Below are positions 1,501 through 1,770 of a DNA stretch of 6,008 nucleotides, piece by piece. The notes under the pieces are model-generated. The model ran no database searches, was not told where the DNA came from, and worked only from the letters and a program-made list of their open reading frames with translations. The stretch lies in the IMG/VR virus record IMGVR_UViG_2648501150_000028; one strand, given 5' to 3'. This DNA is from a virus. Its lineage: Duplodnaviria > Heunggongvirae > Uroviricota > Caudoviricetes. Both the position numbers and the translations under genes were made by a program. The first letter of the stretch is position 1. Every line of letters begins with the position of its first letter.

Positions 1501-1770
1501 ATGAAATCCACCACAGGTATCAACCAGCAAATCAGCAAAGTGCAGTCAGCCATTATGGCGCTTAAGGCGACGAACACGGATGTACAAAGCATCACCATCA
1601 GGGGTAACAAACCTGTCATCCGCGTTTCCCGGAGTGCGCATTGCATGCGCATGCTTGAGCAGGGAAAGGCCTGTTATCTGTATACCGGTCATGACCACAG
1701 GGGACATTTCCGTCAGGGCGTTTTCGAACTGCACGGCTGTCGCGTCGTGTGGCCGGAATCTTTGTGGTAA
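1501..1770 (+). CDS. hypothetical 89-aa protein, Cys/His-rich C-terminal half; occupies the position of kil in phage Mu
   Basis: ATG 1501 is 2 nt after the B stop (TAA 1496-1498); purine-rich AAAGGGG 1488-1494 upstream. C-terminal half carries several Cys and His residues (e.g. SAHCMRM, GKACYLYTGHDHRGHF, LHGCRVVW), a possible metal site. No family recognised. Confidence 0.55.
   Translation: MKSTTGINQQISKVQSAIMALKATNTDVQSITIRGNKPVIRVSRSAHCMRMLEQGKACYLYTGHDHRGHFRQGVFELHGCRVVWPESLW

Follow-up and report, generated by a model that had tools for sequence, protein, structure and literature searches.

A small early gene of a BcepMu-like Escherichia coli prophage probably encodes a distant homologue of phage Mu Kil

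Introduction

Phage Mu carries a gene, kil, for a protein of 74 amino acids (aa) known as gp5 (AAF01084.1; positions 4315-4539 of the Mu record AF083977, NC_000929), which is classified as PF26843 ('Kil_protein') in Pfam and under phrog_2743/6381/2679 in PHROGs. Expression of Mu kil yields spherical E. coli cells, read as inhibited elongation in a statement of PMC3961180 that cites Waggoner et al. 1989. Annotation of the protein is inconsistent with that statement, as both RefSeq and PHROG call it 'Kil protein for bacterial septation inhibition'. The GenBank note adds that it is 'also known as cim for control of immunity'. Here we describe an 89-aa open reading frame (ORF) at positions 1501-1770 of a 6,008-base viral DNA (IMG/VR record IMGVR_UViG_2648501150_000028; the whole stretch is called the window below), which makes up the early region of a transposable, BcepMu-like E. 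coli prophage.

An earlier note, made from the letters of this DNA, placed the ORF at the position of Mu kil and introduced Mu Kil as an inhibitor of host cell division. That description is questionable: despite the RefSeq and PHROG labels, the spherical cells reported in PMC3961180 point to elongation. Our analysis favours a divergent Kil-family early protein with Kil-like host-directed action as the best overall explanation, to which we give a probability of roughly 0.6. The gene is as follows.

1501..1770, + strand: probable Kil-family gene, from ATG at 1501 to TAA ending at 1770; 89 aa plus stop; RefSeq WP_000843445.1

Relationship to Mu Kil

A profile of eight close homologues was searched against 1.84 billion representative proteins (cut-off E≤1e-3) and recovered at least 85 clusters, nearly all of them 85-120 aa long and aligned end to end. 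The exhaustive search was needed for the distant members, as word-indexed searches reached close relatives only (at least 62% identity). Seventy family representatives served for the hidden Markov model (HMM) and the conservation counts given below. Run with filters off against 204 six-frame ORFs from Mu bases 1-10500, the family HMM had Kil as its sole significant match (E=7.7e-5; next-best ORF, 0.32), and the two aligned co-linearly over almost their whole length. Among 1,252 ORFs from nine loci, the family HMM and one built for Mu Kil also chose the same ORFs, these being in Mu-like phages of Klebsiella, Vibrio, Shewanella, and Stenotrophomonas. An ORF of Vibrio phage ZX4290 bridged the two models, scoring 4.7e-7 with the family HMM and 7.7e-7 with that of Mu Kil.

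Profile-profile comparison gave a stronger signal. The 70-sequence family alignment was compared by hhalign with a Kil alignment of 30 sequences, drawn from diverse proteins with a precomputed PF26843 match. The two aligned over 72 columns with 95.9% probability (E=5e-9), while controls (the reversed alignment and 20 column-shuffled versions) reached at most 3.9%. The profile search that the earlier note had proposed leads to the Kil family. Cross-matches at the level of PHROGs were weak: the ORF matched phrog_6381 ('Kil protein') over the full length at E=0.023 and two of its relatives matched it at 0.004 and 0.015, with a weak match in the reverse direction (Mu Kil against phrog_2041, E=0.2). 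A weak precomputed PF26843 match was also present in one distant family member (P0146).

The clearest shared element is at the C-terminus, where Mu Kil ends in ...ARLNGCQIIWR and the ORF in ...FELHGCRVVWPESLW.

1735..1752, + strand: codons G79-C80-R81-V82-V83-W84, the signature C-terminal strand common to the ORF and Mu Kil (NGCQIIW)

The sole invariant residue of the family is W84 (70/70), and this Trp is also invariant in the combined alignment of the ORF family and Kil. Other well-kept positions are A57 (67/70), L21 (66/70), P38 (65/70), E86 (60/70), R81 (52/70), and V82 (52/70).

Kil-family proteins from Mu-like phages of Vibrio, Shewanella, and Stenotrophomonas carry a C-terminal extension of 20-45 residues past the conserved Trp. 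In Vibrio and Shewanella it often ends in N-x-Y-[SA]-P-E-L-I-x-x-W-P-[KR]-N-F. Mu Kil and the window protein lack this extension.

Several observations weigh against a relationship of this kind. Close homologues of the ORF have no precomputed PF26843 match, and the ORF itself gave no single-sequence or Pfam-level match to Mu Kil. BLASTP aligned the two over 22 aa only, within the C-terminal ...GC[RQ][VI][VI]W motif; because pairwise similarity is confined to this motif, the earlier note could find no match to Mu Kil by eye. Few polar residues are common to both branches, with R81 replaced by Q or L and E86 lying past the end of Mu Kil, so the binding surface, and hence the target and phenotype, may differ from those of Mu Kil. 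Weighing these points against the profile-profile match, the matching order of predicted structural elements, and the conserved placement after B, we consider the ORF very probably a divergent, distant homologue of Mu Kil within the PF26843 family. The assignment to the kil position in the earlier note therefore stands, as one of distant homology.

Predicted structure

The AlphaFold2 model of the ORF product has a predicted local distance difference test score (pLDDT) of 91.8 and a predicted template modeling score (pTM) of 0.80; that of Mu Kil reaches 95.4 and 0.82. Both follow the same alpha-beta-beta-alpha-beta-beta-beta order (H-E-E-H-E-E-E), that is, a helix, two strands, a short helix, and three strands. 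They also have the same top viral structural neighbour in BFVD, A0A8S5L8A9, which matched the ORF at E=1.4e-8 (TM 0.88) and Mu Kil at E=3e-3 (TM 0.60), and several lower matches are common to both. Judged by element order and common neighbours, the ORF and Mu Kil have the same predicted fold and secondary-structure order. The ORF product is a small (~10 kDa), soluble, single-domain alpha/beta protein. A sequence-profile search of the PDB found nothing under E=0.3.

The models bear a loose resemblance to the nucleotidyltransferase fold, which raises the alternative of a miniature enzyme of that fold, such as an alarmone-synthetase-like toxin. No conserved strand carboxylates were found in the family, and neither the catalytic carboxylates of Pol-beta nor, with them, the hG[GS] motif could be recognized. 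We regard an enzyme of this type as highly improbable; the resemblance is consistent with a binding module rather than an enzyme.

The gene and its place after B

The 1501 frame is a real gene under purifying selection. Its protein, called 'hypothetical protein' in older RefSeq annotation and 'HI_1482 family protein' in recent annotation of the identical sequence, belongs to phrog_2041 (unknown function in PHROGs; E=1e-36 over residues 3-89, full length). The gene is present in 637 of 5,426 complete E. coli genomes (~12%), and the exact protein was found on at least 1,000 contigs. Compared with its 69% identical homologue in Klebsiella phage KP12, differences fell 19/17/50 by codon position, and the ratio of nonsynonymous to synonymous change (pN/pS) was 0.23 with synonymous sites saturated. 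This pattern, the 85 clusters related end to end, and a start junction that is conserved in KP12 set the gene apart from a chance reading frame. Conservation in related phages, whose absence the earlier note had named among the outcomes that would refute its proposal, was found, both KP12 and PhiKM being included. Scans of the ORF with NCBIfam release 20 and PADLOC gave no match. Nor did Pfam, in a local copy that evidently lacks PF26843, since Mu Kil itself matches nothing there.

Four overlapping ORFs, at 1580-1939 (+), 1485-1652 (-), 1546-1734 (-), and 1616-1822 (-), were rejected because the 19/17/50 substitution pattern and the family conservation fit the 1501 frame.

The coordinates given in the earlier note agree exactly with the ORF listing (+ strand, ATG start), and the ORF does come right after the B stop: the TAA of B occupies 1496-1498, so the ATG follows after 2 nt. 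Two features frame this junction.

332..1498, + strand: B-type transposition ATPase (ExeA/AAA_22), directly upstream of the ORF; RefSeq coordinates
1487..1493, + strand: AAAGGGG, a Shine-Dalgarno-like run still within the 3' end of B and ending 7 nt short of the ATG; read from the sequence

The arrangement of B stop, ribosome-binding site, and ATG, AAAGGGGTTTAAT(A/C)ATG, is kept in KP12. Given the 2-nt gap and a ribosome-binding site inside B, translation of the ORF is probably coupled to that of B. The identity of B itself is supported by Pfam AAA_22 (E=3.8e-20) and phrog_296 'DNA transposition protein' (E=1.5e-93). Its longest ORF opens at GTG 293, overlapping the transposase C-terminus (the transposase ORF ends at 321), whereas the RefSeq start is at 332.

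Downstream, the next gene encodes a Gam protein.

1798..2328, + strand: Gam host-nuclease inhibitor, directly downstream of the ORF, with its own AGGAGG ribosome-binding site; Pfam Phage_Mu_Gam E=2.5e-40

No terminator above chance was found between the ORF and the Gam gene, where the scan stayed at background level, and a promoter and terminator scan around the 1501..1770 ORF was likewise at background. The ORF and the Gam gene form one operon.

Placement after B recurs across the family: in Mu-like elements, each of the seven members inspected has 0-3 genes between B and itself. It is the same in PhiKM and KP12, and Mu and Mu-like phages are arranged alike. Among distant members, P0087 and P0119 directly follow an AAA_22 B gene and P0126 directly follows a 340-aa gene that has no annotation on record; P0104 lies one gene after B, and P0102 and P0137 lie two or three genes after it. 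A Mu-type transposase was found upstream of distant members wherever the contig was long enough. The family occurs directly after two types of B, one containing MuB_C and the other ExeA-like. Its early-operon position after B is conserved in transposable phages.

This placement is also what lends weight to the main rival explanation, in which the protein is an accessory factor in transposition or immunity, acting together with B or the repressor, and is toxic only as a side effect. Tight linkage to B with probable translational coupling, and the association with both B types, would suit such a role. So would the equation of kil with cim ('control of immunity') in the Mu GenBank record and the title of a 1985 paper, seen as an entry in the reference list of PMC2837660, which connects the way transposition immunity is established with a mutation in kil. 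Adjacency to B is not obligatory, however, because one to three unrelated small genes stand between B and the family gene in several members. Moreover, the one phenotype that we found reported for Mu kil, in the statement of PMC3961180, is rounding of host cells. We consider an accessory role unlikely.

Cysteine and histidine residues

All eight Cys and His residues of the ORF (three Cys and five His: H47, C48, C58, H64, H66, H69, H78, and C80) fall within residues 47-80, which bears out the description of a Cys/His-rich C-terminal half in the earlier note. They make up 8 of 89 residues; the family means are 2.6 Cys and 3.8 His. The note had taken this half as a sign of metal binding, and a metal-binding (zinc or redox) protein whose C-terminal Cys and His residues coordinate a metal needed for folding or activity is a second rival reading. 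Apart from the clustering of the eight residues within the sequence, it draws on the invariance of C48, H64, H78, and C80 within the enterobacterial clade (at least 61% identity to the window protein) and on a CxxC at positions 45 and 48 in a subset of the family (16/70).

Conservation across the family runs the other way. H47, H64, H69, and H78 are each kept in 8-13 of the 70 representatives and C58 in six. At position 66, His is outside the five commonest residues, which limits it to at most 6 of 60 sequences. C48 is present in 52/70 and otherwise replaced by L/T/V/N; C80 is present in 58/70 and otherwise V/I/T/M. As both give way to hydrophobic residues, they are better explained as buried core positions than as metal ligands. 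Their losses are uncorrelated (both present in 45, C80 only in 13, C48 only in 7, neither in 5; Fisher p=0.27). Cys is wholly absent from two members (P0151 and P0152), only one Cys is kept in the classical Kil branch, and the ORF has no match to a Pfam zinc domain. No set of three to four ligand residues was conserved across the homologues.

The predicted structure bears on the same question. In the model of the ORF, H64, H66, and H69 sit at the beta3-beta4 turn, with H78 and C80 at the beta4-beta5 turn. In a simple antiparallel meander, the arrangement suggested by the order of the three strands in the model, these turns would lie at opposite ends of the sheet. A single C48/H64/H78/C80 site was rejected on the strand register of the model and on its poor conservation.

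The evidence does not support metal binding as a trait of the family, nor the reading drawn from the Cys/His half. For the most part, the Cys and His residues of the ORF reflect a peculiarity of its lineage and not a metal site conserved in the family, and we consider a metal-binding protein improbable. The enterobacterial clade may have a specific three-ligand site of its own (C48/H78/C80). A more speculative proposal, which we think doubtful to the same degree as the metal-binding reading, is that the BcepMu-like enterobacterial branch has acquired, on the Kil fold, a Cys/His site of its own (C48, H78, C80, and perhaps H47) that makes its activity depend on metal or redox state, and that, more broadly, the Kil superfamily is a catalytically dead nucleotidyltransferase-like scaffold that binds a component of the machinery for cell elongation.

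Elsewhere in the window, a 64-aa ORF at 2426-2620 (+) has the pattern CxxC-x30-CxxC (C5, C8, C39, and C42) and matches phrog_3401 (E=1.6e-40), with weak Pfam zinc-ribbon matches. It is a far better zinc-ribbon candidate than the 1501..1770 ORF. At this locus the PhiKM record annotates a minus-strand ORF and RefSeq the plus-strand one.

Proposed function

We would expect transcription of the gene to start at the early promoter, along with that of A and B, when the prophage is induced or the phage infects. Translation would run in step with that of B, given the 2-nt spacing and a ribosome-binding site that lies within B. Like Mu Kil, the protein would then bind a host protein without acting as an enzyme, with its two semi-conserved cysteines probably serving as buried core positions, not as metal ligands. 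Damage to the host would take the form of lost viability and changed cell shape, through interference with envelope growth.

By analogy with Mu Kil, we rate the chances of a Kil-like host-toxic function as about even. Two points tell against this part of the reading. The name 'Kil' and the label 'septation inhibition' come from annotation and not from tests. In addition, literature searches on the mechanism of Mu Kil and on HI_1482 turned up citations of Waggoner 1989 and a single sentence about the phenotype, and nothing else.

Surrounding DNA

Bases 1-5502 of the window are 99% identical to Escherichia phage PhiKM (Bcepmuvirus in the GenBank classification), and at least 80% of the window is present in 619 complete E. 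coli genomes. From left to right, the window encodes the C-terminus of a DDE transposase, the B-type ATPase, the ORF, Gam, several small ORFs, a DUF2786/DUF7168 protein, GemA, and Mor. Among these, a 98-aa protein of the MazG-like NTP (nucleoside triphosphate) pyrophosphohydrolase family is encoded at 2899-3195 (+). It matches only the C-terminal half of phrog_2245 (113-211 of 218) and is either a minimal MazG domain or the product of a shortened gene. An Rfam scan of the whole window found no RNA family.

The Mu-like prophage ends at ...TCA 5502, with the junction at 5502/5503. The last 506 bases (5503-6008) are 99% identical to a replication gene of lambdoid phages (cdtI, mEp460, and Stx2 phages), which contains tandem repeats of 66 bp and 21 bp at 5589-5759 that are iteron-like in look. 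Other E. coli prophage copies diverge at 5502-5509; one example lies beside araH in strain EcPF7. Here the transposable prophage is inserted inside the replication gene of another prophage.

Comparison with known systems

The main gain is that phrog_2041 and the HI_1482 family can be linked with Mu Kil and its relatives; it is no new kind of system. Both phrog_2041 and the NCBI 'HI_1482 family' are the ORF's own family of Mu-like prophage proteins. Neither assigns a function, and neither, as inspected, records a link to Kil. A gene usually annotated 'hypothetical', which ~12% of the complete E. coli genomes and many further Mu-like prophages of proteobacteria carry, can now be given the working label 'Kil-like early host-toxic protein', and a tempting metal-binding annotation is removed as unsupported. 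The merged family widens the sequence and structure basis for finding the host target of Kil. Two confident models and a set of over 100 diverse sequences could help in approaching the question, now 35 years old, of what Mu Kil targets.

Mu Kil is the closest described relative. It shares with the ORF an early-operon place after B, a small single domain, and the same predicted order of elements. The two have in common an N-terminal helix ending in L-x3-G-x2-V, the motif (R/K)P-[VTI]-[IL], and a C-terminal G-C-x-[VI]-x-W. They differ in sequence (~15% pairwise identity) and in length, the ORF being 15 residues longer. The second helix and the beta3-beta4 hairpin are both longer in the ORF, which also extends past the Trp, where Mu Kil ends, in a 5-residue tail, PESLW (family consensus SE-x-H). 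The ORF is richer in Cys and His, and Pfam and PHROG file it apart from Mu Kil.

Proteins of the Pol-beta nucleotidyltransferase fold, including the non-catalytic RsfS, are a more distant comparison. The ORF is without their catalytic residues, is much smaller, and has no sequence relationship to them, so the likeness is one of resemblance and not of membership. Lambda Kil and Rac Kil, compared here by description, have the same name and are likewise small, early, host-toxic prophage proteins, which inhibit division through FtsZ. By the account in PMC3961180, neither of them is significantly similar in sequence to Mu Kil, nor are the two to one another. Both lead to filamentation of the cells, in contrast to the rounding seen with Mu Kil.
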